Assembly (NCBI GenBank): GCA_016204035.1
Contig: JACQLN010000022.1
Span: 1-49,631 of the forward strand
Direction: 5' to 3'
Source of the DNA: Parcubacteria group bacterium
GTDB taxonomy: Bacteria; Patescibacteriota; Minisyncoccia; JACQLN01
DNA: 49,631 bases
Shown here: piece after piece, positions 6,723 through 46,504 of the stretch
How the letters are laid out: the number at the start of each line of letters is the position of its first letter
Position numbering within the stretch: the first letter of the stretch is position 1
Program-made: the position numbers and the translations under genes
Notes under the pieces: model-generated
What the model was told of the DNA's origin: nothing
What the model saw: only the letters and a program-made list of their open reading frames with translations
Database searches by the model: none

Positions 6723-6903
6723 ATTTAAGTTTGTTTTTAATTTTTTTATTATTGGATAAAATCCATCAGCTGCGGGACCACCGCCTTTTGCGGTGCAAGC
6801 TGGATTCGAACCCCCGCCTTCCGCGGGGTAAACAAGATACCCTCCTTTTCATCCCGCCACAGGCGGGACAAGCAGGGAGGTGTCCTACTTCACCCCGCCA
6901 AAT

Positions 6904-7236: not shown

Positions 7237-7279
7237 TAAATTTGGCGGGGCAAGTTAGACGATCCCGCAATATTATAAA

Positions 7280-7618
7280 TTAAAATATCATGGTTTCAAT
7301 TTTTGACCTAACTTCATCTATAACCGACATATCAACCTTATCAATAAATTCGACTTTTCTGGCTTTCCAATCGGCGCTTTTTAAATGATCTGCCAAAATA
7401 ACGCCCGAGAACTTTCCTGCTTCTACCCAAACTTCAAATGGGTAATGCTTAACCTTTTTTGTAAGGGGGCACACTAAAGCTAGCCGGGATAATTTATTAT
7501 ATTTTTCTGGAGAAACAACCAAAGCCGGCCGTCGGCCACCCTGCTTATGACCTAAAACAGGATCAAAATCAATCCAAACCAAATCACCTCTATCGGGTAT
7601 GTAAGATTTAGTTACCAT
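7280..7618 (-). CDS. mazF: type II toxin, MazF/PemK family endoribonuclease
   Basis: YIPDRGDLVWIDFDP..GHKQGGRRPALVVSP...VCPLT is the MazF/PemK signature. The gene overlaps the upstream antitoxin gene by 7 nt. Confidence 0.85.
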   Translation of the reverse strand: MVTKSYIPDRGDLVWIDFDPVLGHKQGGRRPALVVSPEKYNKLSRLALVCPLTKKVKHYPFEVWVEAGKFSGVILADHLKSADWKARKVEFIDKVDMSVIDEVRSKIETMIF

Positions 7619-7860
7619 ATCTCTCTGCCTACGGGCCTGCCCCAGTTGGTTTCCTTATGTCTATTTTTTGGAGTGATTTTAGAGAGTAATTCTTCCAAAG
7701 TAAACTTTCTTTTGAGTTTTGATTTTGGTTTAATAATTATATTTTTGGCTCTAGGAATAATATCAACTTCCACACCCTCGGCAAGGTTTAGTTTTTTTGT
7801 TACTTCTTTAGGGAAGCGGACAGCCAAACTATTACCCCATTTTTGAACTTTGGTAGACAT
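7612..7860 (-). CDS. mazE: type II antitoxin, AbrB/MazE/SpoVT family
   Basis: VQKWGNSLAVRFPKEV is a swapped-hairpin AbrB/MazE motif. Lies directly upstream of mazF. Confidence 0.8.
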   Translation of the reverse strand: MSTKVQKWGNSLAVRFPKEVTKKLNLAEGVEVDIIPRAKNIIIKPKSKLKRKFTLEELLSKITPKNRHKETNWGRPVGREIW

Positions 7861-7875
7861 AATATAAATAATTTA

Positions 7876-7895
7876 GTATATACGTAAGTATATAC
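7876..7895. promoter_or_regulatory. candidate mazEF operator (two copies of the palindrome GTATATAC)
   Basis: GTATATAC at 7876..7883 and 7888..7895, which is 16-35 nt upstream of the mazE start on the minus strand. Confidence 0.35.
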
Positions 7896-7923
7896 TAGGC
7901 TTTATATATTGCAATACCTGTTT

Positions 7924-8250
7924 TTAATTTAATAGATAAACAAAAAAAGCGGCGGAAATAATTGCCGTGATAATAAAGAAAGCAAGCAGGGTATAGCCGA
8001 ACAAAGAAACGGCTTCTTTTTTATTACCATCTAAATACCATAAGATCGGCCGGCCGAATATTAAAAAGCCCGCCACCGAAGCGGAAAACACCAAAAGCGA
8101 GAGCATTAAAATGGGAGCGAAAAGAGTGTCTTCGGTTTTGTTAAAATCAAGGGCTTTGGGGACGTAAAATAAAAAGGAGGAAATTAAAACTATGTAAGCC
8201 GTGGTTAAACATGCGTTAAGAACGGCATTTTTGGCGATTTTGTTTTTCAT
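7924..8250 (-). CDS. hypothetical small membrane protein
   Basis: 108 aa with three hydrophobic segments. Confidence 0.45.
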   Translation of the reverse strand: MKNKIAKNAVLNACLTTAYIVLISSFLFYVPKALDFNKTEDTLFAPILMLSLLVFSASVAGFLIFGRPILWYLDGNKKEAVSLFGYTLLAFFIITAIISAAFFVYLLN

Positions 8251-8344
8251 AATTCTTATAACTCAAGCGGCTAAGGAGTGGTTTTGAAAATACAATTGAA
8301 CTACGCATCAAAAAAGGATAAGATTAACGGGAAAATAGACTCAA

Positions 8345-9325
8345 ATGAAAAAGATAAAAAACAATAAGCAAATAGTGATTTATCAGGCAAAATCCGGGAA
8401 TATTGAGCTTCGGGGCGATTTTGATAAAGAAACAATTTGGGCATCACAAGCTGAAATTGCCAAAATTTTTAGTGTCACACCACAAAATATTACACTTCAT
8501 TTACGTAATATCTTTAAAGATAACGAACTTGATATAAAATCAACTTGTAAGGAATCCTTACAAGTTCAAAAAGAAGGTGGCAGGGAGATCAAGCGTAAAA
8601 TAAAAGTATATAATCTTGATATTATTATCGCTATCGGTTATCGGATTAACTCTGTTGTTGGTACCAAGTTTCGCCAGTGGGCAACTAAAACTTTAAGGGA
8701 ACATCTTCTTAAAGGTTATACCATAAACCGCAAGCGTATTAGTCAAAATTACGATGAGTTTATGAAAACTGTTAATGATGTTCAAATGCTTCTACCCGAA
8801 CATATAACCCTTGACCCTAAAGCGGTTCTTGAACTCATTAAAGAATTTGCCAGCACGTGGGTGTCACTTGATGCTTACGATAAAGAATCCCTTGCAGTTG
8901 TTGGTACAACTAAAAAAGCAATCAAACTTACCGGAGCAGAACTGGCCAACACCATACGGACTCTTCGTTTGGAATTAATCAAAAAAGGCGAGACCACGGA
9001 AATATTTGCTCAAGAGAAAAAAGAAGGGAGCGTTGAAGGAATAGTAGGTAATATAATGCAGTCATTTGACGGTAAACCACTCTACATAAGTATTGAAGAA
9101 AAAGCTGCACATCTATTGTATTTTATGGTTAAAAATCATCCTTTCACGGACGGCAATAAACGTTCCGGCGCCTTTGCTTTTATTTGGTTTATTCGCAAGT
9201 TTGGAGTTAAAGGCACGCGGAACATAAACCCATCCAGTTTAACAGCACTCACGCTTCTTATTGCCGAAAGCGATCCAAAGAAAAAAGAACAGGTTGTCGC
9301 GCTAATAACCCAATTACTAAAATAA
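8345..9325 (+). CDS. RhuM-family protein with C-terminal Fic/Doc domain
   Basis: The N-terminal 130 aa are RhuM-like (IAIGYRINS..GTKFRQWAT..L). The C-terminal motif HPFTDGNKRSG is the Doc-type variant of the Fic motif. Confidence 0.75.
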   Translation: MKKIKNNKQIVIYQAKSGNIELRGDFDKETIWASQAEIAKIFSVTPQNITLHLRNIFKDNELDIKSTCKESLQVQKEGGREIKRKIKVYNLDIIIAIGYRINSVVGTKFRQWATKTLREHLLKGYTINRKRISQNYDEFMKTVNDVQMLLPEHITLDPKAVLELIKEFASTWVSLDAYDKESLAVVGTTKKAIKLTGAELANTIRTLRLELIKKGETTEIFAQEKKEGSVEGIVGNIMQSFDGKPLYISIEEKAAHLLYFMVKNHPFTDGNKRSGAFAFIWFIRKFGVKGTRNINPSSLTALTLLIAESDPKKKEQVVALITQLLK

Positions 9326-9339
9326 TATAAAGCTTAATC

Positions 9340-9363
9340 GGCTCAACATCGTTGAGCCGTTTA
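9340..9363 (+). terminator. hairpin GGCTCAAC-ATC-GTTGAGCC followed by GTTT
   Basis: Perfect 8-bp stem just after the 8345..9325 stop. A near-identical hairpin recurs at 42626..42648. Confidence 0.5.
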
Positions 9364-9411
9364 GGGTTGAACTTGGGACCTAAAGGGGGTAGTATAAAAA
9401 TATTAAAAATC

Positions 9412-10509
9412 ATGCCGATGAATCACGAACCAGACGAATTTTTAGATCTTGTGGATGAAAACGACAAGGTTATAGGCAGGAAAAAAAGATCAGAGGTTTA
9501 CACCGAAAAACTTTCCAATTTTCGGGTAGTAAATGCTTTTGTTGTAAATTCTAAAGATGAAATCTGGATACCCCGCCGGACGGCCAATAAGCGTATGTTC
9601 CCTTTGTATTTGGACATGAGTATGGGCGGGCATGTGGAAAGCGGCGAAAGCTATGAAAATGCTTTTAAGCGCGAAACGATGGAGGAATTGAACATTGATA
9701 CCGGGAAAGCCCAAACCCGCCTTCTAGGGCATTTAAGCCCGCAAAAAGATGGTGTTTCGGCAAATATGAATGTGTACGAAATCAAAACAGACGAAACACC
9801 CAACTATAATCACAACGATTTTACCGAACACTTTTGGCTAACCCCTCAAGCCCTTTTTGAACGCATCGCCAACGGCGAAAAAACCAAAGGCGACCTGCCT
9901 AAATTGGTTAGGATTTTTTATTGGTTGGACCCTAAAGAATTTGATAAATTTATAGGAAAAGCAAATAAAACATATCAACAGTTTTGTATATGGTTTAACG
10001 CAAACAATGAATTTTCTAAACACCAAGATCGATGGAATTCCATTATTTCAAAAGGTGGATGTAAATATAAAAATTTTTGGGAAGTCATTATCGCGTCAGT
10101 TCAGCATACATGGATTCTTGGAGTAGCAAGACTCCTTGATACCGCATATGCTTCATTTGATAAAAATAAAAAGAAACCTCGACTATCTTTGGAGTATATA
10201 TTGCAGAAACTTAATAACCATAATCTGACTACCAAAATACATAATGAACTGCTAGAATTTCAATCATTTAGTAATTCTATTAAAAAACATCGGATAAATG
10301 TTCTTGCGCATAATGATATTAATTTTGAACCATCAAAAATAGAGGCCGGAGTCGAAGATTTTTTCGAATGGCTCGAAGATAGTATTTCTGAAATTAAAAA
10401 ATATCCCCATCTTGCTGCATGTAAAACAATTAACTTGAAACACACGGAAGAATTATCTAAAAATGGAGTAAAAGAAGTATTTGAAAACATTTTAGCGGGA
10501 GAAAATTAA
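9412..10509 (+). CDS. Nudix hydrolase fused to a C-terminal HEPN (AbiU2-like) domain
   Basis: Nudix box GGHVESGESYENAFKRETMEELN in the N-terminal half. The C-terminal half has KKHRINVLAHND, which fits the Rx4-6H HEPN motif in an AbiU2-like context. ATG 9412 is preferred over TTG 9352. Confidence 0.6.
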   Translation: MPMNHEPDEFLDLVDENDKVIGRKKRSEVYTEKLSNFRVVNAFVVNSKDEIWIPRRTANKRMFPLYLDMSMGGHVESGESYENAFKRETMEELNIDTGKAQTRLLGHLSPQKDGVSANMNVYEIKTDETPNYNHNDFTEHFWLTPQALFERIANGEKTKGDLPKLVRIFYWLDPKEFDKFIGKANKTYQQFCIWFNANNEFSKHQDRWNSIISKGGCKYKNFWEVIIASVQHTWILGVARLLDTAYASFDKNKKKPRLSLEYILQKLNNHNLTTKIHNELLEFQSFSNSIKKHRINVLAHNDINFEPSKIEAGVEDFFEWLEDSISEIKKYPHLAACKTINLKHTEELSKNGVKEVFENILAGEN

Positions 10510-10609
10510 AACATTATAAAAACATACAGTTGAGCTGATTGTGGTTGAATTTAGGGCTTAGAGGGGGTAGGATGAGAGTATTCTTAAGTGTGTTAAAATG
10601 AAATAATTT

Positions 10610-11047
10610 ATGGAACAATCTATAGAAAAAAGATTCCCGCGCGGAGTAGAAACTGTAAGCTCCGCTATTATGCAAAAAGATGGAAAAATTTTACTCACAA
10701 AATCTCCAAAATGGTCTAATAAATGGTTATTGCCCGGAGGGCATATTGAGGCGGGGGAGTCGATTTTAGAAGCAACTGTTCGGGAAGCGCAAGAAGAAAC
10801 TGGGTTAAAGCTCAAACCTATAAAAATTTTAACTTTTGGAGAGCTTATTGATTCAAAAGACTTCCATCGTCCGGCGCATTTTATCTATTTTGATTGCATT
10901 TTTGATGTTATTGGAGGTGAGTTGAAATTACAAAAAGACGAACTAACGGAGTCAAGATGGTTGACGCCCTCAGAAGCATTAAAACTAGAACTTGTTGAAA
11001 CTTATCCCGAAACTCTGCAAAAATACATTGAGTTTTTATCCGATTAA
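10610..11047 (+). CDS. Nudix hydrolase
   Basis: Nudix box GGHIEAGESILEATVREAQEETGL. Confidence 0.85.
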   Translation: MEQSIEKRFPRGVETVSSAIMQKDGKILLTKSPKWSNKWLLPGGHIEAGESILEATVREAQEETGLKLKPIKILTFGELIDSKDFHRPAHFIYFDCIFDVIGGELKLQKDELTESRWLTPSEALKLELVETYPETLQKYIEFLSD

Positions 11048-11067
11048 CTAAAATCGCGTAAAAAATA

Positions 11068-11090
11068 CCCTTCGATTTTACATCGAAGGG
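11068..11090. terminator. bidirectional hairpin CCCTTCGAT-TTTAC-ATCGAAGGG
   Basis: Perfect 9-bp stem between convergent coding regions, with A/T runs on both sides. Confidence 0.55.
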
Positions 11091-11105
11091 TTACTAGACC
11101 AAAAA

Positions 11106-11306
11106 CTAATCTTCATCATCCTCGTCGTCATCATAATCATCGTCATCATCGCTATTATTCGGTCCAACCCAGACCTTGCCCGCTCCACCGCAAGAAGAAC
11201 ATGGAACATTACAATACTGAGACGTCTCAGCAGCTACAGTACATCCATTACAACGGCATGTACCACTACCACCACAATGAGCGCATCTGACAATCTCTCC
11301 AATGGG
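11106..11306 (-). other. Cys-rich (DnaJ CR-type CxxCxGxG x2) open frame with poly-acidic tail and no canonical in-frame start
   Basis: Hand translation: PIGEIVRCAHCGGSGTCRCNGCTVAAETSQYCNVPCSSCGGAGKVWVGPNNSDDDDDYDDDEDDED*. GGAGAG lies 8 nt upstream of an ATG, but that ATG is in a neighbouring frame and stops after 6 codons. Confidence 0.3.
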
Positions 11307-11320
11307 TATAAATTGATTAT

Positions 11321-11716
11321 ATGAAAGGCTATATTTTAAACATAGAAAAAATAACTTTAGAAAACGAAAATTTTAGAAAGGTTTTATATACCGCTAAAAA
11401 CAGCCAGCTGGTGGTGATGCGCCTAAAACCGGGCGAGGAGATAGGCGAGGAGGTGCATCAACTGGACCAGTTTATAAGATGCGAGGCCGGAACGGGACAA
11501 GCTGTTTTAGACGGAGTGGAACATGCTATAAGCGACGGGTTCGCCGTGGTGGTTCCGGCCGGCGCCAAGCATAATATTATAAACACATCCGCAATGGCGC
11601 CATTAAAACTCTACACAGTTTATTCTCCACCCAACCACCGCGACGGCGTGGTTCATTTAACCAAAACCGACGCCGAAGCCGACGATGAATCTTTTGATGG
11701 CCGGACCACGGAATAG
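11321..11716 (+). CDS. cupin-domain protein
   Basis: 131 aa. G.EIGEEVH...AVVVPAGAKHNI matches the two-motif cupin pattern. Confidence 0.7.
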   Translation: MKGYILNIEKITLENENFRKVLYTAKNSQLVVMRLKPGEEIGEEVHQLDQFIRCEAGTGQAVLDGVEHAISDGFAVVVPAGAKHNIINTSAMAPLKLYTVYSPPNHRDGVVHLTKTDAEADDESFDGRTTE

Positions 11717-11795
11717 TATTGACGCAACACCGATACATAGGTATCATCCCAATCAACAGTTCTTTCCACCGCAGACCAACAAAGGAGTCAAAAAT

Positions 11796-12068
11796 ATGAT
11801 AAGAAAGATGTTGGAATTGGTAGTGCTTACTGAAACCAAGCTGGTTGTTCTTTCCGTAGTTTTTTATGTAACCAGTATTTTTTGTTTGAGTGCTATGTGT
11901 TTAGCTATTTTTGACAACGCAAAGTTATTGGCTGTTTCTCTGGCTTTTTTTTCAGGGTTATCAATGCTAATCGGCACATGGTGTATGGTTATGTTGGCTC
12001 TCTACCTGGTTGATGATGAAATTAGGCGAGCCACACTTTGGAACACGCCTATCACACCTAGAAGATGA
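11796..12068 (+). CDS. hypothetical small membrane protein
   Basis: ATG 11796 is preceded by AAAGGAG 8 nt upstream. Two or three hydrophobic segments. The tracked start at 11685 overlaps the cupin gene. Confidence 0.5.
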   Translation: MIRKMLELVVLTETKLVVLSVVFYVTSIFCLSAMCLAIFDNAKLLAVSLAFFSGLSMLIGTWCMVMLALYLVDDEIRRATLWNTPITPRR

Positions 12069-12076
12069 TATCCACC

Positions 12077-12100
12077 GGCCGCGTTTGACGCGGCCTTTTT
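12077..12100 (+). terminator. rho-independent terminator
   Basis: GGCCGCG-TTTGA-CGCGGCC followed by TTTTT. Confidence 0.7.
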
Positions 12101-12103
12101 ATT

Positions 12104-12130
12104 CCCCGCCCTTGGCAACCAAGGGCGGGG
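12104..12130. repeat. CCCCGCC...GGCGGGG hairpin, same family as the tRNA insertions
   Basis: ATT-CCCCGCCCTTGG-CAA-CCAAGGGCGGGG-ATGA. The stem ends and flanks resemble TTG-CCCCGCC...GGCGGGG-TGAA at 6893..7250 and 6852..6868. Confidence 0.5.
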
Positions 12131-12305
12131 ATGACTCCGCTATAAGATCATATATAAGATCACACTATACACTATCTTACTATTTATCCTACGATCGTAT
12201 GGTTGATAGTAAGATAAGAATAAAAAATATGCACGGTAAATCAAGGTTCACCCTGCTTAAAAGGCACGGCGCCAGCCGCCTCGGGGCGGCTTACTTCTAA
12301 CAGGG

Positions 12306-12334
12306 TTGACAAGATATTAGTACGGGTATATAAT
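12306..12334 (+). promoter_or_regulatory. sigma70-type promoter TTGACA-17-TATAAT
   Basis: Consensus -35 at 12306..12311 and -10 at 12329..12334 with a 17-nt spacer. This leaves a ~120-nt leader before the helicase ATG. Confidence 0.6.
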
Positions 12335-12454
12335 AGAAAGATAATCAAATCTCATCGGTTTTTGGCGTTTTAAGGGTTAAAATCCTAAAAAATAAGCTTT
12401 AAGGGCTTTTGTCTGGAAACTCGTGAGCAAGGGCAATTAGCCCATAAAGCATAT

Positions 12455-13654
12455 ATGAGAAGCTTCAATAATAGAGGCCCCCGTAGGCCGTTTTCAACTA
12501 GAAAATTTAATAACCGTCCGCCCCGAAGAGGCGGCAATGGGCAGATCGGCCAATATATAAACCCGGCTAGGTTTATTAACAAAGCGGTCAGCGTGGAAGA
12601 AAGCGCGGAATTTATACCCCAACATAAATTCCAAAATTTTAATATTGACCCCGCCTTAAAAAGCAACATTCTAAACAAGGGTTACAAATTGCCCACGCCT
12701 ATTCAAGACAAGGCCATTCCGCATCTTTTGAACGGAGAAGACATTGTGGGCATCGCCGACACCGGCACCGGAAAAACGGCCGCTTTTTTAGTTCCTTTAA
12801 TAAACAAAATTTTATTAAATAGAAGCGAAAAAGTTTTGATCGTGGTGCCCACCCGGGAACTGGCCATACAAATAGATTTTGAACTTAAATCTTTAACCAA
12901 AGCGCTGCAGGTATATTCCGTTTATTGCGTCGGCGGCATGAGCATCGGCCGGCAGATTTCCGAACTGCGTAGCCGCCATAATTTTGTTATCGGCACGCCC
13001 GGCCGGCTAAAAGATCTTATAGCCAGAAAAAACATTTTCCTTTCGGAATTCAAAACGATTGTTCTGGATGAAGCCGATCGGATGCTGGATATGGGTTTTA
13101 TCAACGACATCCGCCTGATTATGGCGGGCCTGCCCAAAACCAGGCATACGCTTTTCTTTTCGGCCACTTTGTCGCGCGAAATAGAAGGTATGATTTACGA
13201 ATTTTTGCGCGAACCGGTTAGAATTTCGCTAAAAACCCGCGACACTTCGCAAAACGTGGAGCAAAACGTGGTCAAGGTGGAAAAAGGAACAAACAAACTG
13301 GAAGTTCTGCGTGGTTTGCTTAACCGGAAAGAATTTAATAAGGTTCTTGTTTTCGGCCGAACCAAGCACGGCGTGGAAAAACTTTCCCGAACATTGGTTC
13401 AAATCGGTTTTAGAGCTGATTCTATTCACGGCAATAAAAACCATTCCGGCCGGCAGCGCGCCTTAACGGCCTTTAAGAACAACCGCGTGCAGGTTTTGGT
13501 GGCCACCGACGTGGCGGCCCGCGGTTTGGATATTCCCAACGTGAGCCATGTCATCAACTTTGATTTACCCAATACATACGAAGACTATATTCACCGGATC
13601 GGCCGGACCGGCCGGGGCGACCAACGCGGCACGGCGTTAACTTTTATAGACTAA
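12455..13654 (+). CDS. DEAD-box ATP-dependent RNA helicase
   Basis: Q-motif region, motif I ADTGTGKTAAF, motif II VLDEAD, SAT, and motif VI HRIGRTGR. The N-terminus is Arg/Gly-rich. Confidence 0.9.
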   Translation: MRSFNNRGPRRPFSTRKFNNRPPRRGGNGQIGQYINPARFINKAVSVEESAEFIPQHKFQNFNIDPALKSNILNKGYKLPTPIQDKAIPHLLNGEDIVGIADTGTGKTAAFLVPLINKILLNRSEKVLIVVPTRELAIQIDFELKSLTKALQVYSVYCVGGMSIGRQISELRSRHNFVIGTPGRLKDLIARKNIFLSEFKTIVLDEADRMLDMGFINDIRLIMAGLPKTRHTLFFSATLSREIEGMIYEFLREPVRISLKTRDTSQNVEQNVVKVEKGTNKLEVLRGLLNRKEFNKVLVFGRTKHGVEKLSRTLVQIGFRADSIHGNKNHSGRQRALTAFKNNRVQVLVATDVAARGLDIPNVSHVINFDLPNTYEDYIHRIGRTGRGDQRGTALTFID

Positions 13655-13702
13655 CGTCTTAAATTAGAAAAACCATTACTCCGACGGGTAGGCATGGAAA
13701 AA

Positions 13703-13803
13703 ACAAAACATTGGTTTGAGCGACTTCAAGGAGGTTCCAGTTAAATTATAAAGAGGGAGGATGCAAGTGCTCCTCCTTGCAGGAGCGAAAACTAATGTTT
13801 TGT
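13703..13803 (+). repeat. structured intergenic repeat, family A, copy 2
   Basis: The 65-nt core 13721..13785 differs at one position from 25159..25223. Outer stem ACAAAACATTGGTTT/AAACTAATGTTTTGT. Confidence 0.6.
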
Positions 13804-13820
13804 GATTTTAATTTAAAAAA

Positions 13821-14783
13821 ATGTTAGTAGACGACGTAAAAATAAAAATAAAAGCGGGTAACGGCGGCCGGGGCGCCGTCGCTTTTAATAAAAATTTAAT
13901 GAGTTTGGGGCCGACCGGCGGCGACGGCGGCAATGGCGGCAGTATTTATTTTGAAGGCGTTTCCAACTTAAACGCTTTGGCCCAGTTTAGATACAAAAAA
14001 GACATAAAAATAAAAAACGGCGGAAATGGAAAACCGCAATTTAATGACGGCGCCAGGAGTGAAGATTTGATCTTAAAAATTCCCATCGGCGCTGTTATAA
14101 CCAACTTAGACACCGGTGAAAGTTCCGAAATCACCAAGGTGGGCCAGCGGGTGCTGGCCGCGAAGGGTGGCCGGGGCGGCAAAGGAAATTTTCAGTTTAG
14201 GTCTTCTATAAATACCACGCCGATGGAGTTTCAAAAAGGCCTCGCGGGCGAATCTTTTAGCATCCGCCTGGAATTAAAACTTATCGCCGATGTGGGTTTG
14301 ATCGGTTTGCCCAATGCCGGAAAATCAAGCTTGTTAAACGAACTTACGCGCGCCCGCAGCAAAGTGGCTAATTACCCCTTTACCACATTGGAACCCAATC
14401 TGGGCGCCTATTACGAACTTATTTTAGCCGACATTCCGGGTATAATTGAAGGCGCTTCGCGGGGTAAGGGATTGGGCGTAAAATTTTTGCGCCATATTGA
14501 ACGCACTAAAATTTTGTTCCATTTAATCTCGGCCGAGTCGGAAAATTTGGCCGGGGATTATAAAATTATCAGAAACGAATTAAAAACCTACGGCGGCAAT
14601 TTATCTAAAAAACAGGAATACTTATTTTTAACCAAAAGCGATTTGGTTGCCCCCGCGGAGCTTAAAAAGAAACTGGCCAGCTTAAAAAAGACAAATAAAA
14701 ACATTCTCGCCCTATCCATCCACGATTGGGACAGTTTGGAAAAAGTAAAAAAGATTCTCAACAAAATTCAGGAAGAAAAATAA
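13821..14783 (+). CDS. obg: GTPase Obg
   Basis: Gly-rich Obg fold (GNGGRGAVAF, GGDGGNGG), G1 GLPNAGKSS, G3 DIPG, G4 TKSD. Confidence 0.9.
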   Translation: MLVDDVKIKIKAGNGGRGAVAFNKNLMSLGPTGGDGGNGGSIYFEGVSNLNALAQFRYKKDIKIKNGGNGKPQFNDGARSEDLILKIPIGAVITNLDTGESSEITKVGQRVLAAKGGRGGKGNFQFRSSINTTPMEFQKGLAGESFSIRLELKLIADVGLIGLPNAGKSSLLNELTRARSKVANYPFTTLEPNLGAYYELILADIPGIIEGASRGKGLGVKFLRHIERTKILFHLISAESENLAGDYKIIRNELKTYGGNLSKKQEYLFLTKSDLVAPAELKKKLASLKKTNKNILALSIHDWDSLEKVKKILNKIQEEK

Positions 14784-14786
14784 AAA

Positions 14787-14816
14787 AGAGGCCGCCGAAG
14801 CGACCTCTTTGTTTTT
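14787..14816 (+). terminator. rho-independent terminator after obg
   Basis: AGAGGCCGC-CGAA-GCGACCTCT followed by TTGTTTTT. Confidence 0.65.
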
Positions 14817-14839
14817 ACAAAGAACTGACTTGAAAGAAC

Positions 14840-15643
14840 CTAGTTGCCGAATCCGCCGGCGGCCGTTTGGCTGAAGCTGGCGCCTCCCTGGCTGGCCCGC
14901 ACCGCGGACTGGCTGAACACGTTAAACGCCCTCCGCAACTCCGAGGGCGTATTGCCCGGGGTGAGGATCCACTCGTCCTCAATCCCCATCTCGCTGAACA
15001 CCCGGCGGAAATCCGTACTTCCGCCGTCGTCGATACCCATGCCCGCGATGATGTGGCCCTCGGTCTTCAGCATGTCCCGAACGATAGCCCGAACGCTCGA
15101 GGGGTTTTGCTGACGCGAGTGTTCATCGGCGCCATCCGTGATGATCAGGGTGACCGCCCGGCAAGGCACGCCGTTGTCCTCGAAAGACTGAACCTTCGCG
15201 AGCACAGTGCCAAGCAGAACAACTGACTGGTCGTAGAGCGGCGTGCCCTTACTGGGATCGTAGTTGTGGCTGTCCATCCGCACCACCTGGTCAAGGGGCG
15301 CGAAAGGATACAACACGAACCCGTTGAGATACCGGCAGTGTACAAGGATACCGTCCTTCTGCTTGGAACCGCCGAGAGAGTCCAGGACAAGGTTGTGACC
15401 GTCCCGGACATGCTGGGCGTTGCCGGCAAACCGGATGGAACCGGAATCGTCCGGCATCATGGTAACGAGCGTGACCTCGCTCGCCTTGACATCATCGACA
15501 TCGACGCCGATGCCCATCTGAATCTGCTCGCCAATGTCGGCGATGTTGATGGCACCTGCGCCAGCCGGAGACAATGTTCCGTCCTCCTTGGCGCTGTTGA
15601 GCAATGTAGCCACGCTTTGACCGGAACTGCTTGGCTTACCCAC
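14840..15643 (-). CDS. von Willebrand factor A (vWA) domain protein, TerY-like
   Basis: MIDAS motif DDSGS (DxSxS) and a downstream ITDGADE. GTG start preceded by GAAGGAGG. GC-rich. Confidence 0.8.
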   Translation of the reverse strand: MGKPSSSGQSVATLLNSAKEDGTLSPAGAGAINIADIGEQIQMGIGVDVDDVKASEVTLVTMMPDDSGSIRFAGNAQHVRDGHNLVLDSLGGSKQKDGILVHCRYLNGFVLYPFAPLDQVVRMDSHNYDPSKGTPLYDQSVVLLGTVLAKVQSFEDNGVPCRAVTLIITDGADEHSRQQNPSSVRAIVRDMLKTEGHIIAGMGIDDGGSTDFRRVFSEMGIEDEWILTPGNTPSELRRAFNVFSQSAVRASQGGASFSQTAAGGFGN

Positions 15644-15686
15644 AGCTGACCTCCTTCTGGTTTAGGAGTTGGGTTGAGAATCACGG

Positions 15687-16772
15687 CTAGGCGGCAACAT
15701 TCATGCCCGGCCACGACTCGATTGGCTCGGTAGAATTCACGACGTTCATACCGGCGGCGGCGTAACGCTGGAGCGCCTCCTCCGCCTGATCGGTGAAATC
15801 CACGAAGAAACCGCCCTTCGGATTCGGAACCGCCACCGCCGAAGTGCAGTCCCTGAGAACATAGACTTTCTTGGCCAGACCCGGATCCTGGGTGAGGATC
15901 TCGGCCAGGAAATGATCAATGGACGACTTCACGCAGTGGCTCGCGGCCTGACCCGCGATAACCAAAGCATCAGCGTCCATGAGACTCTGGATGAATCTGA
16001 CATTCTTGGATCCCAGAACCCCAGAACCGTCAAAACGAAGCGTCACCTCCGGGCTGAAGACGGAATAGTTTTCCGTGAGCGGATTACCGCCCTTCACTTC
16101 GGCCTCGGACTGCATCTGGCGAACATACGAATGAAACATCCTGGCTTCCTGAATGACGCCGACCAGTGTGTGGCCGTCGGAACCGAGCATGCAATGTTCG
16201 GGCCAGATGTAGAGCTGGTAGCGCCCGCCTTCCGCGAGTTTCTCGCAGTAGAACCGCACCTGCTTCTGGAGCCAGGTGTAATTGCCATTGCAGAGGAACC
16301 CGGCAACCGCCGGGTTCGGCGCCGCCTTGCCGACGGGCTTGCCCAGGCGAAGAATCGTGAGATCCGCCGAGATCATATCGTGGGGCTGGAGGGGATTGCC
16401 ATCCGCATCCACCCAGAACGACGGGAAAAAGATCTGGAAAGGAAAGTGCGTATCCAGGGTCGGGGTGATGTGCGTCAGTACGTGGATGTTCTCGTAGATG
16501 AACCTCGCGATTCGGCGACTGTCGTCAACCGCGCCGGTTCCGCTTCGTCCGCCGACGTAGAGCGTGCCTTCGGGAAAACAGAAGTCGCGCTGCCCGTCGA
16601 TGATCAGCAGGTGAACTTTGAACCGATCGCCCGCGGCGGCTTTGATGTTAAGCTGTCGCCGGTAATCCTGCGCCGAGGTAAACAGGTCGCGAAGATTGGG
16701 CGAGTAACTCCACCTGACGGCGTTGGCGGGATCGTAGAAACTGGGCAACTGCGGAGTGCGAGCGCGAACCAT
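15687..16772 (-). CDS. isochorismatase-family cysteine hydrolase, nicotinamidase (PncA)-like
   Basis: IIDGQRDFC (catalytic Asp region), LDTH (possible metal site) and GQAASHCV (nucleophile Cys). 361 aa. SD AAAGGAG. Confidence 0.7.
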   Translation of the reverse strand: MVRARTPQLPSFYDPANAVRWSYSPNLRDLFTSAQDYRRQLNIKAAAGDRFKVHLLIIDGQRDFCFPEGTLYVGGRSGTGAVDDSRRIARFIYENIHVLTHITPTLDTHFPFQIFFPSFWVDADGNPLQPHDMISADLTILRLGKPVGKAAPNPAVAGFLCNGNYTWLQKQVRFYCEKLAEGGRYQLYIWPEHCMLGSDGHTLVGVIQEARMFHSYVRQMQSEAEVKGGNPLTENYSVFSPEVTLRFDGSGVLGSKNVRFIQSLMDADALVIAGQAASHCVKSSIDHFLAEILTQDPGLAKKVYVLRDCTSAVAVPNPKGGFFVDFTDQAEEALQRYAAAGMNVVNSTEPIESWPGMNVAA

Positions 16773-16812
16773 TTCTGGCTCCTTTCGGTGATGAGATGTG
16801 ATCGTTCTTTTA

Positions 16813-18702
16813 TTACCTGATGGTCAGACGCCATATTTCATGCGTCCCAACCACCATAAGGCCGATTTTATCTACAAACAGGTGCCGGCCGGTATGCACA
16901 AACCGAGCGGCATCAGGAAATTCTTTTTCCACGGCTAGCGTGTTGCCAAAAGATTTCACCCTGACGATACCGTCGTCGGTCGCGACCAAAAGAAAATCGT
17001 TGATGGCGCACTTTCCACGAATTTTTCCAAGCCAAGATCCGTCGTCAGCTTCGGTTTCGGCTTGGGCTTCAACAGTGCCGTCGTAACGGATAAGGAAACA
17101 GGAGTTTATCGTTTGGCCGCCCATGCGGCTGGAGATAATAAACCAAATCATGTCTTTGCCAAAAAGACAGGTGGAATCAATGAGCTGCCCTTTGAACGGC
17201 CTTAAAGTCAAATTGCTGTTGATGCCTTTTCTTTCGGTGTTAAAGATAAAACACTGGCTTAGACCGCCGGCCCGATAAAATCCAAAGCCGACTCGCGGCC
17301 CAACCCAAAACAAAGTTTGTTGGCGGAGCACATCGCCGACAATTTCATGAAAACCAACACCGAGTTTGCTGGTGCGTTTGATCTGGCCGTTGCCTACCCA
17401 AAAAACATTCCGTTCATTCGCATCAACCGCCGGCAACGACCCAAGAGCGTCCACGGCAATTGTTTGGGGCGTCTGTTCGCCAGCAGTGAACACAGAAGCG
17501 GTATTGCCGTTGGCGATCACCGTATCTGCAGAACGAATACGGAAACGGGCATAGGGATCCAGCGCACTAGCCGCAACAACTGAACCGTCTTCACGACGAT
17601 ATTCTTTGTCGTGATGGTAAAGCCATTTCAACGATCCTCCTTGGGAAACAGCGAAGATGACCTGGCCTTCGGTCCGGAAGATTCTTTCTCCAGAAACGGT
17701 TCCTGTGGACACGGCTGTCACCGCCTGTGGGATTATCACTTTGCATTTGGGACAGACGTTGCGAGCGTGAATAGTGCCGCAGGTGTTGCAGGTTGTCCAA
17801 CGAAGATCGTCAAGAAGTTGTCGGGGAATCGGCATCCTATAGTCTTTCTCAAAAACATCAAAGAAGTATTGCAAGAGGCCATCAGATAAAACACTGAAAT
17901 GGCGCGATGGTCTTGGGTAGCGCACTTCCGGATGAAACACGGTAATACGGTGAAGCGGCCGCACATTGTGAGCCACTTTTTTGGACTGATTTTTGGGCTT
18001 GTAAACCCCGCCGTAAGGTCCGCCCGAAATACAAAGCAGGGTCTGCATCAACATAACCGCAAACGCGTACCAATCCGACATTTCATTGTGGGGCTTGGAA
18101 AGCAGTATCCTATCCTGGTGCAATGCGCATAAGAGCGGATCCACGAATCTCTCCGTGAACACTCGACACAGAAATTGGCCGAACTGGCCGCTGTCCGCGT
18201 CAATAACATACACTTCCTTACCTTTCACAAGAATGTTTAAGTCGTTGGCATCGCCAAAGACATATCCTTTTTTGTGAGAACTGTGAAATATAGAGTAAAG
18301 ATTTCTGCAAACATCCGCCACAACATCGTCGGGAATTCCGCTTTCGCGGAAGTTAACTTCGCTGTACCGCAGGAGCACTTCCGCTCCCTTTACAAATACC
18401 ATGGTATAACCGACCACAGTACCATTGCGATCATACGCAAGTTCTTTTGGAACAATAACTTCTTCGGGGAGCCCGCTGGGAAAAGCCGGAAGTTTTCTTT
18501 GGTGTTCGGCAATCCGCTCCCGAGCCCCGTTTTGTTCGTGGGGCAAACCTATGTAGTCGGGATGGTCGGGCGGTTTGAAAATCTTTAACGCCGTTCCGCC
18601 GTCAATATCATAGACGTCGGCTTCGCCTCCTTTGCCAACTGACTTGTCGGGATCAAGCCGAAATCTTTTTTTGGCTGGACCGATAAAGACCTCGCTGATC
18701 AT
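16813..18702 (-). CDS. Ser/Thr protein kinase-like protein with Zn-ribbon and beta-rich C-terminal domain
   Basis: G-loop GKGGEADVY, Lys in ALKIFK, catalytic GDANDLNILV and VIDADSG. A CNTCG...CPKC Zn-ribbon follows, then ~300 aa of repeated beta-strand-like sequence. The start overlaps the PP2C stop (ATGA). Confidence 0.75.
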   Translation of the reverse strand: MISEVFIGPAKKRFRLDPDKSVGKGGEADVYDIDGGTALKIFKPPDHPDYIGLPHEQNGARERIAEHQRKLPAFPSGLPEEVIVPKELAYDRNGTVVGYTMVFVKGAEVLLRYSEVNFRESGIPDDVVADVCRNLYSIFHSSHKKGYVFGDANDLNILVKGKEVYVIDADSGQFGQFLCRVFTERFVDPLLCALHQDRILLSKPHNEMSDWYAFAVMLMQTLLCISGGPYGGVYKPKNQSKKVAHNVRPLHRITVFHPEVRYPRPSRHFSVLSDGLLQYFFDVFEKDYRMPIPRQLLDDLRWTTCNTCGTIHARNVCPKCKVIIPQAVTAVSTGTVSGERIFRTEGQVIFAVSQGGSLKWLYHHDKEYRREDGSVVAASALDPYARFRIRSADTVIANGNTASVFTAGEQTPQTIAVDALGSLPAVDANERNVFWVGNGQIKRTSKLGVGFHEIVGDVLRQQTLFWVGPRVGFGFYRAGGLSQCFIFNTERKGINSNLTLRPFKGQLIDSTCLFGKDMIWFIISSRMGGQTINSCFLIRYDGTVEAQAETEADDGSWLGKIRGKCAINDFLLVATDDGIVRVKSFGNTLAVEKEFPDAARFVHTGRHLFVDKIGLMVVGTHEIWRLTIR

Positions 18703-19571
18703 GGCCGCACCTCTTTTTTCCAGTCGGGATCGCGCCTGATGACAACCAAAGTTGTATCGTCAGCCAAAAGACCGTTGGTTACCCGTGCTTTGTTTCCGGC
18801 AACAACTTCGGCACCCTCTTTGCCTATAAGCGCCAGTCGCCGCCGAACGGCATCGCTGTTGGTAAAATAATGGTCGTCGGTCCAAAACTGGCTTATACTT
18901 CCGACCACTTCCTCGCGGTGCGGCAGATTTTTGTCGGCCAACGCAATCAAATCAAGAACGCCGTCACATCCCAAGATCAAACTTTCCAGTTCGTCTATTA
19001 GGATAATCCGATTCACTTGAATCTTAAGAAGTTCCGGCTGATCAACCGTTAACGATGAACCGGTGAGGTTGTAGGCAAGATACGACGGGGCATTGTTGGG
19101 AAATGGTCCGAGTTGGATTATTTCTCCGTTCAGCACAAAAACCCCATCCCCAAGGGAAAACAAAAACACATCCCAAGGGGTGATAAGCGCGCCCACCAGC
19201 GTGAACAGAAAATAGTCGTTGATCGTTTTGGAAAAACTCTCTCCCATTGACGATGCCAAAACAGCAATCTGACTCAGGATAAGAGTTTTTACACGTTCCC
19301 AATCAATCCCAACTTCTTTTTCGGGTTGGGATAAAAGTTGTCCGACATACCGTTCTCCAGCTTCGGCTATAAACTGAACCACGAGCCGTGCCGATATTTT
19401 AGCGCCCACTTCGCTGTGGGCGCCACTGCCACAACCATCGCAAACCACCGCTGCCAGACAATTATCCGTCTGACGCCAGTGAAAAGCGTCTTGATTGTTG
19501 GTCCAACCGGGTTTTCCGGGTTTGGTATGTTCACTGCCCGGCACAGAGCCGCCGGCGATCTGAAACTCCAT
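18699..19571 (-). CDS. PP2C-family Ser/Thr protein phosphatase
   Basis: QDAF...AVVCDGCGSG and LGCDGV are metal-binding motifs of PP2C-like phosphatases. SD GGAGGTGG. Confidence 0.8.
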   Translation of the reverse strand: MEFQIAGGSVPGSEHTKPGKPGWTNNQDAFHWRQTDNCLAAVVCDGCGSGAHSEVGAKISARLVVQFIAEAGERYVGQLLSQPEKEVGIDWERVKTLILSQIAVLASSMGESFSKTINDYFLFTLVGALITPWDVFLFSLGDGVFVLNGEIIQLGPFPNNAPSYLAYNLTGSSLTVDQPELLKIQVNRIILIDELESLILGCDGVLDLIALADKNLPHREEVVGSISQFWTDDHYFTNSDAVRRRLALIGKEGAEVVAGNKARVTNGLLADDTTLVVIRRDPDWKKEVRP

Positions 19572-19695
19572 AATCCACCTCCTTTATCAGGAAAAGACTG
19601 TTTTTAAGCGTAATTATTGTAATTTATTAAAGATCTATCATGGTAATGTCTGACATTACTCTGAAACCAGATAATAACTAACCATTCCTTATGTT

Positions 19696-19709
19696 GTCAA
19701 TATATTGAC
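19696..19709. promoter_or_regulatory. perfect 14-bp palindrome GTCAATATATTGAC in a divergent promoter region
   Basis: Lies in the AT-rich 207-bp spacer between the PP2C operon and the NaPRTase gene. Confidence 0.35.
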
Positions 19710-19778
19710 TATTTAATACTAATTATATATTATATAGATTCTCTGCACATTAACAAACATCAAGAAAAGGAGGGAGAA

Positions 19779-21077
19779 ATGGATCCGAAAGACCTAGCCG
19801 AGCGTTTGCGCGCAAGTTGGGCGGAATTCAACCCGCCGGTGCGTTCGCTTTTGGATGCGGATTTTTACAAATTCACCATGGGGCAGTTTATTCACCACTA
19901 TTTTCCAGACACGGAAGTCACTTTTAAGCTTATCGTGCGGGATCCCAAGATACCGATAAGCGAATTTGTGAACGAAGAAGAATTAAGACGGTGTCTGGAT
20001 TACGCTATGGGCTTGCGATTTTCACCGGCCGAACTTGATTTCCTTAAAGGGATCAATCTCTACAAAAAGGGTATGTTCAAAGATCGCTATATGGCTTTTT
20101 TGGAAAAGTTCCGTCTGTCGCCCTACCAATTGAAAAAGGCAGATGGAGCGATTGAGCTTGTTTTTTGTGGACGCTGGACCAGGGTATCTTTATGGGAAAC
20201 TATCGCTCTAGCCATCATCAGCGAGCTTTATTATCGGGGAGTCCTGCGAAACACGCCGCAACCCGATCTTGAAAAAATATATCAAAGAGCCGAGGCAAAG
20301 ATAGTTCGCAAAATTGAGACATTGGCGGCGCAGCCGCGCGTTTCGTTGGCCGATTTCGGCCAACGGCGGCGGCACAGTTTTTTGTGGCAGGAGTTTGTGG
20401 TTGGGCTGTGCCGGAATATGTTAGGTAAAAATTTTACCGGAACCTCCAATACCTGGATGGCCATGCACCACAACTTGCCGGCCATAGGCACTATCGCCCA
20501 CGAACCGGCGATGGTGTTGACCGCTCTGGCCAATTCCGATGAAAGAATGCGCCAGGCGCAGTATCATCTGTTGGAACTTTGGCAGGAAATCTATGGCCAA
20601 GGTCTGCGCGTTTTTCTGCCCGACACCTATGGTTCAGAACAGTTTTTTGCCGGAGCTCCGGAATGGCTGAAAAATTGGACGGGGCAACGGCAGGATTCGG
20701 GCGATCCCAAAGCCGAGGGTGAAAGGTATTGCCAGTGGCTTAAAGAGCACGGCGTTGACCCAACCGAACGGCTAACCATTTTTTCGGACGGTCTGGACGT
20801 AGAGCCGATGGTTGAAATCGGATCTTGTTTTGAAGGCAGGCATCAGCATGCGTTTGGCTGGGGCACACTGCTTACCAACGATTTTGCCGGCTGCGATCCC
20901 AACAACTCCAACCTTAGGCCTTTCTCGATGGTTTGCAAGGTTGTGGCGGTTCACGGCCGATCTTGCGTCAAACTTTCCAATAATCCCGGCAAAGCCACCG
21001 GGCCGAAAGAAGAAGTTGAGCGATATTTGAAAGTTTTTGGCGACAAGGGACGCAAGAATCAGACTGTTGTGGTTTAG
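19779..21077 (+). CDS. pncB: nicotinate phosphoribosyltransferase
   Basis: N-terminal LLDADFYKFTMGQ and overall PncB-like length and layout (432 aa). SD AAAGGAGGG. Confidence 0.8.
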   Translation: MDPKDLAERLRASWAEFNPPVRSLLDADFYKFTMGQFIHHYFPDTEVTFKLIVRDPKIPISEFVNEEELRRCLDYAMGLRFSPAELDFLKGINLYKKGMFKDRYMAFLEKFRLSPYQLKKADGAIELVFCGRWTRVSLWETIALAIISELYYRGVLRNTPQPDLEKIYQRAEAKIVRKIETLAAQPRVSLADFGQRRRHSFLWQEFVVGLCRNMLGKNFTGTSNTWMAMHHNLPAIGTIAHEPAMVLTALANSDERMRQAQYHLLELWQEIYGQGLRVFLPDTYGSEQFFAGAPEWLKNWTGQRQDSGDPKAEGERYCQWLKEHGVDPTERLTIFSDGLDVEPMVEIGSCFEGRHQHAFGWGTLLTNDFAGCDPNNSNLRPFSMVCKVVAVHGRSCVKLSNNPGKATGPKEEVERYLKVFGDKGRKNQTVVV

Positions 21078-21097
21078 TGTAGTACTTTTTGAAACCC

Positions 21098-21128
21098 AAG
21101 CGGCCGCATTGCACGCGGCCGCTTTTTT
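21098..21128 (+). terminator. rho-independent terminator after pncB
   Basis: AAGCGGCCGC-ATTGCAC-GCGGCCGCTT followed by TTTT. Confidence 0.75.
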
Positions 21129-21207
21129 ATTCACTTAAAAAACATTATATGGTATAGTTAGATTAGTTCTTTTTAACGGTAAAAACACCTAACTCAAGGA
21201 GGGTGGT

Positions 21208-21705
21208 ATGAGATTTATTGTCCCGATTTTTACGCTTTTACTTATGATTCTGGCCGGCTGCGGGGAAAATAGTTCCCCAGTCGCAAGTGTGGAAGGTTAT
21301 CAACCACAGATTGTCTACCCAGCCGCGAAAATCGCATCTCACGACAGGGCTATGCGAGAATTTTGGAGAGCATACGATCAAGCCAAGGAAGTTCTAAGGG
21401 ATCTCAAACGTTATATCCCCAAAGGCACACCCAGAGACCCAGAAGGTGAAAGGCATGACACTAACATTAGGAAACTACGAAAGGATTTGGACCAAGCTAA
21501 CAGGCGTCTAGACCGAGCCTTCAGGAACGTGAGAAATGATGCCAGCGCCCGGGCGGCTATGGCATCGTTTGGAGAATACATGGGGAGTGTGTTGGCTAGA
21601 CTACCAAAAAATGTCTATCTTCTTATTGTGATCAATCCGTGCGACCTGCCCTGGATCGGCGAGTATCTTTGCCCGTACATGCCAGGACAAGGTATCTCCG
21701 CCTAG
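21208..21705 (+). CDS. hypothetical lipoprotein
   Basis: Signal peptide with lipobox LLMILAGC. SD AAGGAGGG. No family recognised. Confidence 0.55.
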   Translation: MRFIVPIFTLLLMILAGCGENSSPVASVEGYQPQIVYPAAKIASHDRAMREFWRAYDQAKEVLRDLKRYIPKGTPRDPEGERHDTNIRKLRKDLDQANRRLDRAFRNVRNDASARAAMASFGEYMGSVLARLPKNVYLLIVINPCDLPWIGEYLCPYMPGQGISA

Positions 21706-21713
21706 CGAAGAAA

Positions 21714-21745
21714 ACCGTCTCGACAAATACCGAGGCGGTTTTTTA
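21714..21745. terminator. bidirectional hairpin terminator overlapping the dnaX stop
   Basis: ACCGTCTCG-ACAAATAC-CGAGGCGGT followed by TTTTTT. Confidence 0.55.
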
Positions 21746-45746: not shown

Positions 45747-45773
45747 CCTCCGCAGAGCAAAACTCTGCGGAGG
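45747..45773. terminator. bidirectional hairpin CCTCCGCAGAG-CAAAA-CTCTGCGGAGG
   Basis: Perfect 11-bp stem between the convergent ftsW gene and the GC-rich ORF. Confidence 0.65.
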
Positions 45774-45786
45774 TAAATTGGCCAGC

Positions 45787-46353: not shown

Positions 46354-46504
46354 AGCGATCCTTCCTTGTTTTTGGCTTTCTGATTATCCCACCGCTTTGG
46401 CGGGCTTCAGATGAGCCGATTTTTTAGGGTACTATGTTAAGTATAGCAAATAACTAAAACAGTGTCAAGTGCAACCGGTTGGTGAATAAGGTTATAATGA
46501 ACAC

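Follow-up and report, generated by a model that had tools for sequence, protein, structure and literature searches.

Introduction

Three described systems come close to the gene block treated here, which spans positions 14,817–21,745, between obg and dnaX, of a 49,631-nucleotide (nt) stretch of DNA from a Parcubacteria group bacterium (contig JACQLN010000022.1, assembly GCA_016204035.1; the whole stretch is called the window hereafter). In the NrtR regulons, nicotinamidase (PncA) and nicotinate phosphoribosyltransferase (PncB) are encoded side by side; the published operators have a 21-bp symmetry with a GT-N7-AC core, and ADP-ribose releases NrtR from them (Rodionov et al., 2008; PMC2330246). 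The TerY-P triad, as summarised in PMC11090510, comprises a von Willebrand factor A (vWA) protein similar to TerY, a PP2C phosphatase and a Ser/Thr kinase that bears a zinc ribbon at its C-terminus (Anantharaman et al., 2012), and the same paper reports stand-alone TerY-P-like anti-phage systems (Gao et al., 2020). Finally, systems centred on an ADP-ribosylglycohydrolase (ARG) and on Nudix or WYL transcription factors, with vWA or other chaperones, are predicted to act against ADP-ribosylation by viruses (Iyer et al., 2022; PMC9503650, section 3.8).

The block holds four genes on the minus strand, which encode a PP2C-type phosphatase, a Ser/Thr kinase, a predicted long-form nicotinamidase and a vWA protein with a metal ion-dependent adhesion site (MIDAS), and, divergently, pncB. 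We hold it to be probable, if not strongly so, that the block is an old insertion with an NAD-salvage cluster, in which the Preiss-Handler enzymes PncA and PncB stand together with an operon for a TerY-P-like phospho-switch. The pncA and pncB parts are ordinary; the notable parts are the conserved TerY-P-like coupling, its breadth, and a G+C content at third codon positions (GC3) and a Shine-Dalgarno (SD) signal that do not depend on the host. To our knowledge, bacteria of the Candidate Phyla Radiation (CPR) and DPANN archaea are generally unable to make NAD de novo and depend on salvage, and in their physiology a compact, conserved salvage cluster joined to a dedicated signalling trio would hold a central place that annotation has so far missed.

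As in the NrtR-regulated pncA-pncB pairs, nicotinamidase and nicotinate phosphoribosyltransferase are found side by side in the window, and most of the related loci also share with these regulons an adjacent nrtR, the 21-bp operator, nadE, nadD and prs. The differences are a long PncA of about 350 amino acids (aa) that lies in an operon with kinase, PP2C and vWA genes, none of which is listed in the part of the published NrtR regulons that we examined, and the lack of NrtR and of its operator in the window. With the TerY-P triad, the operon has in common the three protein types in one operon and the four-Cys zinc ribbon after the kinase, the likeness of the vWA protein being one of fold and MIDAS. 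It departs from that triad in an extra 300-aa all-beta domain after the kinase ribbon, in a nicotinamidase placed between kinase and vWA, in the order PP2C-kinase-(PncA)-vWA, in the lack of any sequence membership in PADLOC, and in its neighbours, which at about 86 non-redundant loci (the best 80 mapped by tblastn, together with those from exact look-ups) belong to NAD metabolism and not to tellurite resistance (Ter), restriction or CoCoNuT genes. The ARG-centric systems share with it an ADP-ribose-sensing Nudix transcription factor, a vWA “peptide-binding chaperone,” a phosphatase component and, in some loci, an ARG, which in cyanobacteria lies inside the operon; however, the core here is nicotinamidase, kinase and PP2C and not ARG with a rhodanese-phosphatase, an ARG occurs in seven of the roughly 86 loci and not in the window, evolution is slow and there are no nuclease effectors. 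Compared with a classical genomic island, the empty site and the deviant composition are present, whereas integrase, tRNA target and direct repeats were not found. A search of the searchable literature, to which the original TerY-P paper does not belong, found no account of a PP2C-kinase-PncA-vWA operon.

The proteins of the cluster

Three of the operon proteins, of 629, 361 and 267 aa, had no match above threshold in sequence searches of Pfam, NCBIfam, PADLOC or PDB, and NCBI calls two of them hypothetical. Against PDB, profile searches yielded no more than weak matches to kinases, nicotinamidases and a Nop10 ribbon. Each of the three has thousands of homologues of unusually high identity, and their assignments come from these homologues, from conserved residues and from structure models.

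The 361-aa protein (15687..16772, minus strand) is identical to an NCBI entry named ‘nicotinamidase’, and 26 of 32 close homologues match the isochorismatase family PF00857 (E ≤ 0.01, best 1e-5). The Asp-Lys-Cys triad D59, K227 and C280, in the motifs IIDGQRDFC, VKGGNP and AASHCVK, is invariant in all 32, as are D107, H109 and H193 (D-x-H ... WPxHC), which we take to be the metal-binding residues after established nicotinamidase structures. In weak profile matches, the WPEHC of this protein aligns with WPPHC of the Leishmania nicotinamidase 3r2j, and Mycobacterium tuberculosis PncA (3pl1) is also found. Family membership and conserved residues thus indicate a long-form nicotinamidase of the isochorismatase superfamily. 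In some hosts PncA is longer still (580-604 aa), with an extra N-terminal domain of about 230 aa (…GLCGRIIRGKKPEDFLTLTDDPDRK…) that has no Pfam match (L025:11893-13635; L067:11922-13736; L081:11918-13654; L176:11867-13645).

The 267-aa protein (14840..15643, minus strand), encoded by the last gene of the operon, was modelled by AlphaFold2 (AF2) with a pLDDT of 87, and its Foldseek matches in PDB are all vWA or integrin I domains (E 6e-6, probability 1.0). The MIDAS residues D65-x-S67-x-S69, T134 and D170 are invariant in 32 homologues, and a Ser/Gln-rich C-terminal tail is conserved. The protein is 65-70% identical to its cyanobacterial and myxobacterial copies. The NCBI record begins 10 codons further downstream (257 aa); since GGAGG lies 6 nt upstream of the GTG at 15643 and homologues align with the longer N-terminus, the 267-aa start is more likely.

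In the 629-aa protein (16813..18702, minus strand; AF2 model with a pLDDT of 88), Foldseek finds the kinase domains of PKA, IRAK4 and PknG (E 2e-7). Residues 1-300 form the kinase, behind which come a four-Cys zinc ribbon (305-320) and an all-beta domain (330-629); K40, D151, N156 and D168 of the kinase and C305, C308, C317 and C320 of the ribbon are invariant. The last domain has about 28 beta strands in the model and reads as similar to a seven-bladed propeller, a fold matched by none of the searches, in which the Foldseek list was filled with kinase matches. The first gene of the operon (18699..19571, minus strand, 290 aa) encodes a PP2C-type phosphatase by its Pfam match to PP2C_2 (PF13672; 58 bits against a cutoff of 24, E 1.3e-15), and PncB (19779..21077, plus strand, 432 aa) is recognized by NCBIfam PRK05321 (NF003704; 409 bits, cutoff 379) and TIGR01514 (281.7 bits, cutoff 269.55) and, above the cut-offs, by the Pfam families NAPRTase and NAPRTase_N.

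A module of four genes in bacteria and archaea

In a scan of one genome per GTDB species, the kinase was detected in 453 genomes of CPR bacteria, DPANN archaea, Cyanobacteria, Myxococcota, Planctomycetota and Acidobacteriota. At the mapped loci the order PP2C-kinase-PncA-vWA is found almost everywhere, and look-ups that start from PncA (in Elusimicrobia and in another metagenome-assembled genome, MAG) reach the same four-gene module. Clustering of all neighbouring open reading frames (ORFs) at these loci gave the kinase at 86 loci, PP2C at 75, vWA at 67, PncA at 63, NrtR at 48, PncB at 24, NadE at 11, and Prs, ARG and a NadD-like/NAD-kinase fusion at 7 each; two clusters of NadD-like adenylyltransferases account for 4 loci each, and LSDAT/SLOG, Nudix and radical-SAM genes also occur near the module. 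In four cyanobacterial loci (L072, L077, L083 and L085, at about 9100-10000) the ARG gene lies inside the operon, between PP2C and kinase, which ties the module to ADP-ribose turnover. PP2C and kinase occur without PncA and vWA in Spirulina and a few other loci and lie 5 kb apart from them in Archangium; PncA and vWA remain paired. An ORF of about 216 aa without a Pfam match recurs in nine loci (L032:13931-14581 and eight others) and in some of them lies directly 3' of the vWA gene.

Most of the other loci have a 21-bp palindrome, TTAGTGTA-N5-TACACTAA, with a GT-N7-AC core, upstream of PP2C, nrtR, pncB or nadE. Because of this operator type and of the linkage to NrtR at most other loci, the module is normally part of the NrtR regulon of NAD salvage. 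The window lineage departs from this rule: the palindrome has no match in the whole window at up to three mismatches and is lacking in the sister locus L015 too, and no NrtR homologue is encoded in the 49.6-kb window or in L015, although the genome could carry one outside these stretches.

When the kinase, PncA and vWA proteins are concatenated, their neighbour-joining tree is star-like and does not resolve routes of transfer within the CPR. Among 50,697 GenBank phage records only remote kinase matches and no vWA match were found, and 72,556 plasmids of PLSDB gave no vWA match. In IMG/VR viral contigs a single-protein scan remained empty, and a profile scan returned eight contigs of 221-545 kb with the full module (L175-L182), two of them with the order vWA-PP2C-kinase-PncA. 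They may represent huge phages, or else cellular contigs that were misclassified; their flanks carry HNH/RRXRR endonucleases, a major-vault-protein-like gene, a CCA-adding enzyme and many small same-strand ORFs. In the DPANN archaeon Aenigmatarchaeota JACQII010000016.1 (L010/L022, about 5900-21100) the module lies in a block of about 16 kb together with PPK2, a sigma-70 factor, ParB, two LSDAT/SLOG genes, pncB, a radical-SAM gene, nadE and a Nudix gene. Archaeal exosome, prefoldin and proteasome genes stand on either side of it, and the block is a bacterial-type island in an archaeal genome.

Proposed mechanism and physiological role

By what is known of the pathway, PncA would convert nicotinamide to nicotinate and PncB nicotinate to nicotinic acid mononucleotide, the first two Preiss-Handler steps. 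By analogy with TerY-P and from gene linkage, the kinase, PP2C and vWA proteins may form a phospho-switch that acts on, or together with, the nicotinamidase. The C-terminal domain of the kinase would sense a signal; phosphorylation and dephosphorylation would then set the state of the MIDAS vWA protein, probably through its conserved Ser-rich tail, and the vWA protein could in turn bind, assemble or gate the metal-dependent nicotinamidase, a step suggested by strict gene linkage only. Since PncA and vWA stay paired where PP2C and kinase separate from them, as in Spirulina and Archangium, the distribution points to the vWA protein as the direct partner of the metalloenzyme. In most other hosts NrtR would repress the operon through TTAGTGTA-N5-TACACTAA and ADP-ribose would induce it; in the window lineage expression would probably start from conserved divergent promoters of the sigma-70 type, perhaps modulated by a palindrome in the leader.

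NAD+ and ADP-ribose are central in conflicts between phages and bacteria. The operon might accordingly be an immune or counter-immune system for NAD+/ADP-ribose conflict, and not primarily metabolic: ADP-ribose released by phage attack or NADase activity would induce it, the triad would sense and signal, the vWA protein would be a peptide-binding chaperone, and the nicotinamidase would remove nicotinamide, fuelling the rebuilding of NAD or relieving product inhibition of the NADase. The TerY-P architecture of the triad, reported for anti-phage systems (PMC11090510), the ARG, LSDAT/SLOG and Nudix neighbours, and the resemblance to the ARG-centric systems with a Nudix transcription factor and a vWA chaperone proposed against viral ADP-ribosylation (PMC9503650) are in line with such a role, as are the variable genomic position of the module, its spread into DPANN archaea and its presence in the eight IMG/VR contigs, the viral status of which is unproven. 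However, no toxic effector is present, and among PADLOC families neither the vWA nor the PP2C protein has a match at E ≤ 0.1, the kinase only one at 0.07, to PD-T4-6. The proteins are extremely conserved across phyla, as the vWA identities given above illustrate, and not fast-evolving, and the module is vertically coherent within cyanobacteria and within myxobacteria. It is kept in CPR genomes of about 1 Mb beside pncB, nadE and nadD, and is absent from the GenBank phage records and the plasmids. We therefore regard a conflict system as unlikely and prefer the reading of an NAD-salvage cluster with a phospho-switch.

A wider proposal, possible but doubtful at present, is that PP2C, kinase, long PncA and vWA make up an undescribed machine for NAD+ homeostasis or for the response to NAD and ADP-ribose stress, induced by ADP-ribose through NrtR and found in CPR bacteria, DPANN archaea, cyanobacteria, myxobacteria and possibly huge phages. 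In such a machine a eukaryote-like Ser/Thr phospho-switch and a MIDAS chaperone would directly control nicotinamidase, with a likely role in the recovery from, or the defence against, NAD-depleting or ADP-ribosylating attack, and the GC3 excess of its two most conserved genes, described below, would point to unusually frequent recombinational exchange with GC-biased gene conversion. If true, this would be the first phospho-signalling control of NAD salvage in prokaryotes. An ADP-ribose-induced operon that unites a TerY-P-like switch with the recycling of nicotinamide would, moreover, offer a testable link between signalling, immunity and cofactor homeostasis, and culturable carriers exist (Nodosilinea PCC 7104, Sorangium and Archangium).

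Base composition and Shine-Dalgarno signals

The first-pass annotation, a reading of the DNA letters by a model, had described the block as a GC-rich, SD-bearing island, and its description is borne out. Its hand counts of G+C (39/60 at 15001..15060, 29/60 at 17101..17160 and 20/60 at 13981..14040) are exact, and the GC content is 0.516 in 14817-21745 versus 0.431 in the rest of the window, which is close to the top among all 6.9-kb segments of the contig (0.15% equal or exceed it; maximum 0.517 at 14853). The excess is uneven: the vWA gene has a GC of 0.61 and a GC3 of 0.77 and the pncA gene a GC of 0.59 and a GC3 of 0.74, and the other four genes of the block range from about 0.49 to 0.50 in GC and from 0.49 to 0.55 in GC3, compared with means of 0.43 (standard deviation 0.047) and 0.46 (0.088), respectively, for the 42 ORFs outside the block. 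Codon usage is likewise distinct, with AAG at 0.80 versus 0.15 and ATC at 0.81 versus 0.24 in the GC3-rich genes and the flanks. The window as a whole is heterogeneous, its 1-kb segments ranging from 0.34 to 0.59 GC, with a second small GC-rich spot at 45.8-46.4 kb. The five quoted SD motifs are present at the starts named in the annotation (15643, 16772, 19571, 19779 and 21208) and a sixth, GAGGT, precedes the kinase gene; a 5-nt SD core at most 21 nt from the start was thus found in 6/6 genes of the block, and most flanking genes do lack one (2/41 carry it; Fisher p = 2.6e-6).

These features had led to the proposal that the block was acquired horizontally and recently, from a donor of higher GC that uses SDs, and has not yet ameliorated. 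The GC3 of the two GC-rich genes, the divergent codon usage and the contrast in SD motifs are in its favour, together with an empty site in a relative, described in the next section. Still, four of the six genes lie only about one standard deviation above the background GC3, and a comparison of best hits leads away from a GC-rich donor: the genomes in which the island proteins have their nearest relatives are of the CPR and similar in GC content, and the copies there have the same GC3 offset. When the GC3 of module genes was compared with that of the flanking ORFs locus by locus, pncA and vWA showed an excess of +0.20 in the CPR (26/26 loci) and of +0.18 in the other non-cyanobacterial hosts (17/17 loci), PP2C and kinase one of +0.08 and +0.07, respectively, and both pairs one of about 0 in Cyanobacteria. 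This excess persists over a host GC3 of 0.26-0.86 (0.26-0.70 for the CPR loci) and parallels the ranking of the proteins by conservation, and within a single operon it is unequal between the two gene pairs, that of PncA and vWA having the stronger shift; a single transfer followed by amelioration predicts neither the recurrence in all 26 CPR loci nor the inequality between the pairs. Similarly, SD motifs are enriched at the module genes across CPR hosts (67-78%, versus 27% of 478 flanking ORFs). Because GC3 offset and SD recur across hosts whatever the GC content of the host, they are a property of the module and not the scar of a recent transfer. A recent acquisition is, all this considered, quite improbable.

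A candidate cause of the excess is that the most conserved genes undergo frequent homologous exchange and, with it, GC-biased gene conversion. Translational selection was considered as another cause and fits poorly, the G-ending codons AAG, GAG and CAG (Lys, Glu and Gln) being preferred in a reduced genome. The window contains no ribosomal-protein genes. For genome scanning this calls for caution: a GC-rich, SD-bearing block may be old, and a ‘foreign’ signature may be a trait of a gene family that provides no clock.

Insertion between obg and dnaX and its age

The first-pass annotation had also taken the block for an insertion, and this part of its proposal is supported. An exact look-up of the window Obg returned no record. 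Among the metagenome contigs that a scan with Obg brought up, a related one from groundwater (L095; 78% identity to the window in Obg, 80% in the DEAD-box protein and 79% in DUF4015) has the order DEAD-obg-dnaX-DUF4015, with the obg stop at 2439 abutting the dnaX stop at 2440. A second contig (L096) has a different insert of 4.9 kb between obg and dnaX, with a two-component system and a spermine-synthase-like gene, and in a third (L097) the phage-like genes UDG, T5orf172 and RusA follow obg. The content of the convergent obg|dnaX junction thus varies, and a gain at this site is the best reading of the island.

The age of this gain is indicated by L015, a Minisyncoccia MAG from another study and of a different species, in which obg and dnaX are separated by the same island in the order DUF4015-dnaX-pncB-PP2C-kinase-PncA-vWA-obg-DEAD. 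Its junctions are those of the window, and the intergenic promoters, SD motifs and terminator are homologous. Amino-acid identity between L015 and the window is 74-85% for the island genes and 70-86% for the flanks, and synonymous divergence (dS, Nei-Gojobori) is 0.65-1.55 in the island and 0.83-1.48 in the flanks. Since the junctions are the same and dS in the island is like that of the flanks, the island predates the split from L015, which further contradicts the recent acquisition weighed above.

If the region were instead ancestral, L095 (and L096) would have lost or replaced it and no insertion would have taken place in the window lineage. Only four related contigs bear on this question, and identity to the window in Obg decreases from L015 (84%) through L096 (81%) to L095 (78%), an order that this view can accommodate. 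Nevertheless, the exact stop-to-stop junction of L095 fits an undisturbed compact site more easily than a precise deletion of 6.9 kb, three different contents are found at the same junction, all other carriers have the module in unrelated contexts, and the composition and translation signals of the block differ from those of its surroundings. An ancestral state is, in view of this, very improbable. An assembly chimera that joined the island to obg and dnaX deserves hardly any credence. Three Logan contigs of the same run series carry the identical operon and none of them reaches either junction, which would be compatible with a false join; but both junctions recur in the independent MAG L015, where the terminator and the intergenic sequence are homologous.

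The searches also agree with the earlier remark that integrase, tRNA and flanking direct repeats are missing at the borders: Pfam finds no integrase or recombinase domain among the six genes of the block, the borders show no direct repeats beyond A/T-rich 8-mers, and there is no tRNA gene at them, the sole one of the window (tRNA-Gln, 6923-6994) being 8 kb away.

Several points weigh against the reading of an old insertion with a phospho-controlled NAD-salvage cluster. The 361-aa protein of the window does not itself match PF00857 even at E ≤ 10, and its own sequence stays below the Pfam, NCBIfam and PDB thresholds. NadD and NadE, which are needed to complete NAD salvage, are not encoded in the window. 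A shared trigger could explain the gene linkage in place of a direct action of kinase, PP2C or vWA on PncA, and NrtR control cannot be claimed for the window genome. The direction of change at the obg|dnaX site, gain as opposed to loss, is suggested by parsimony over four contigs.

Transcription units and control signals

The block is made up of three transcription units: the minus-strand operon (19571->14840), the divergent pncB and a lipoprotein-like ORF. At its left border, between the obg stop (14783) and the vWA stop (14840), a terminator scan detected a bidirectional intrinsic-terminator hairpin (14785..14810) with an 11-pair stem and T-runs on both strands, which is partly conserved in L015. 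Within the operon the kinase start overlaps the PP2C stop (ATGA).

Operon and pncB are separated by a divergent control region of 207 bp (19572..19778), where a promoter scan predicts back-to-back sigma-70-like promoters that share a palindromic -35 element at 19695-19710, TTGACA-18-TATTAT on the minus strand for the operon and TTGACT-17-TATTAT on the plus strand for pncB, with 11/12 and 10/12 matches to the consensus, respectively. SD motifs precede both divergent first genes, PP2C and pncB, and a 17-bp palindrome, GTAATGTC-T-GACATTAC, lies at 19643-19659 inside the operon leader of about 90 nt. In the alignment with L015 the two promoters and the SD motifs are conserved, as is the presence of a palindrome at the same place. 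The genes of the block have real leaders, and many flanking genes would lack SD motifs because they are probably leaderless or preceded by short leaders. Around the block, a TATAAT-like box that ends 6-17 nt before the ATG, with no SD, was noted for many housekeeping genes, among them those at 22-636(-), 11321, 23553, 34172, 34925, 42735, 46505 and 47707, which suggests that leaderless mRNAs, or mRNAs with very short leaders, are widespread in this Parcubacteria genome.

On the 3' side, pncB is followed by an intrinsic terminator (21098..21124, plus strand) with a 10-pair stem, 8 GC pairs and a T-run, and then by the third unit, an ORF of 165 aa (21208..21705, plus strand) with a lipoprotein-type signal (…LAGC), a promoter-like site at 21130-21158 and an SD motif. 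It has no family match in Pfam, PADLOC or NCBIfam, and by tblastn it is found in the window and not in L015; this absence from the sister locus marks it as having been added to the obg|dnaX junction separately and later.

Other features of the window

The second GC-rich spot (45750-46470, GC 0.59) corresponds to a single-gene insert, antisense between ftsW and murG. Its ORF (45787-46353, minus strand, 188 aa) has a TTGACA-17-TATACT promoter, an SD-like AAGGAAGGA and a terminator hairpin, a signature that resembles that of the main island, and no match in Pfam. At 6900-11100, a low-GC block (0.34-0.39) adjoins the tRNA-Gln gene (minus strand) and encodes RhuM and Fic (8345-9325), a Nudix domain fused to HEPN AbiU2 (9352-10509) and a further Nudix protein (10610-11047); the block has the look of a defence or toxin-type gene island next to a tRNA.

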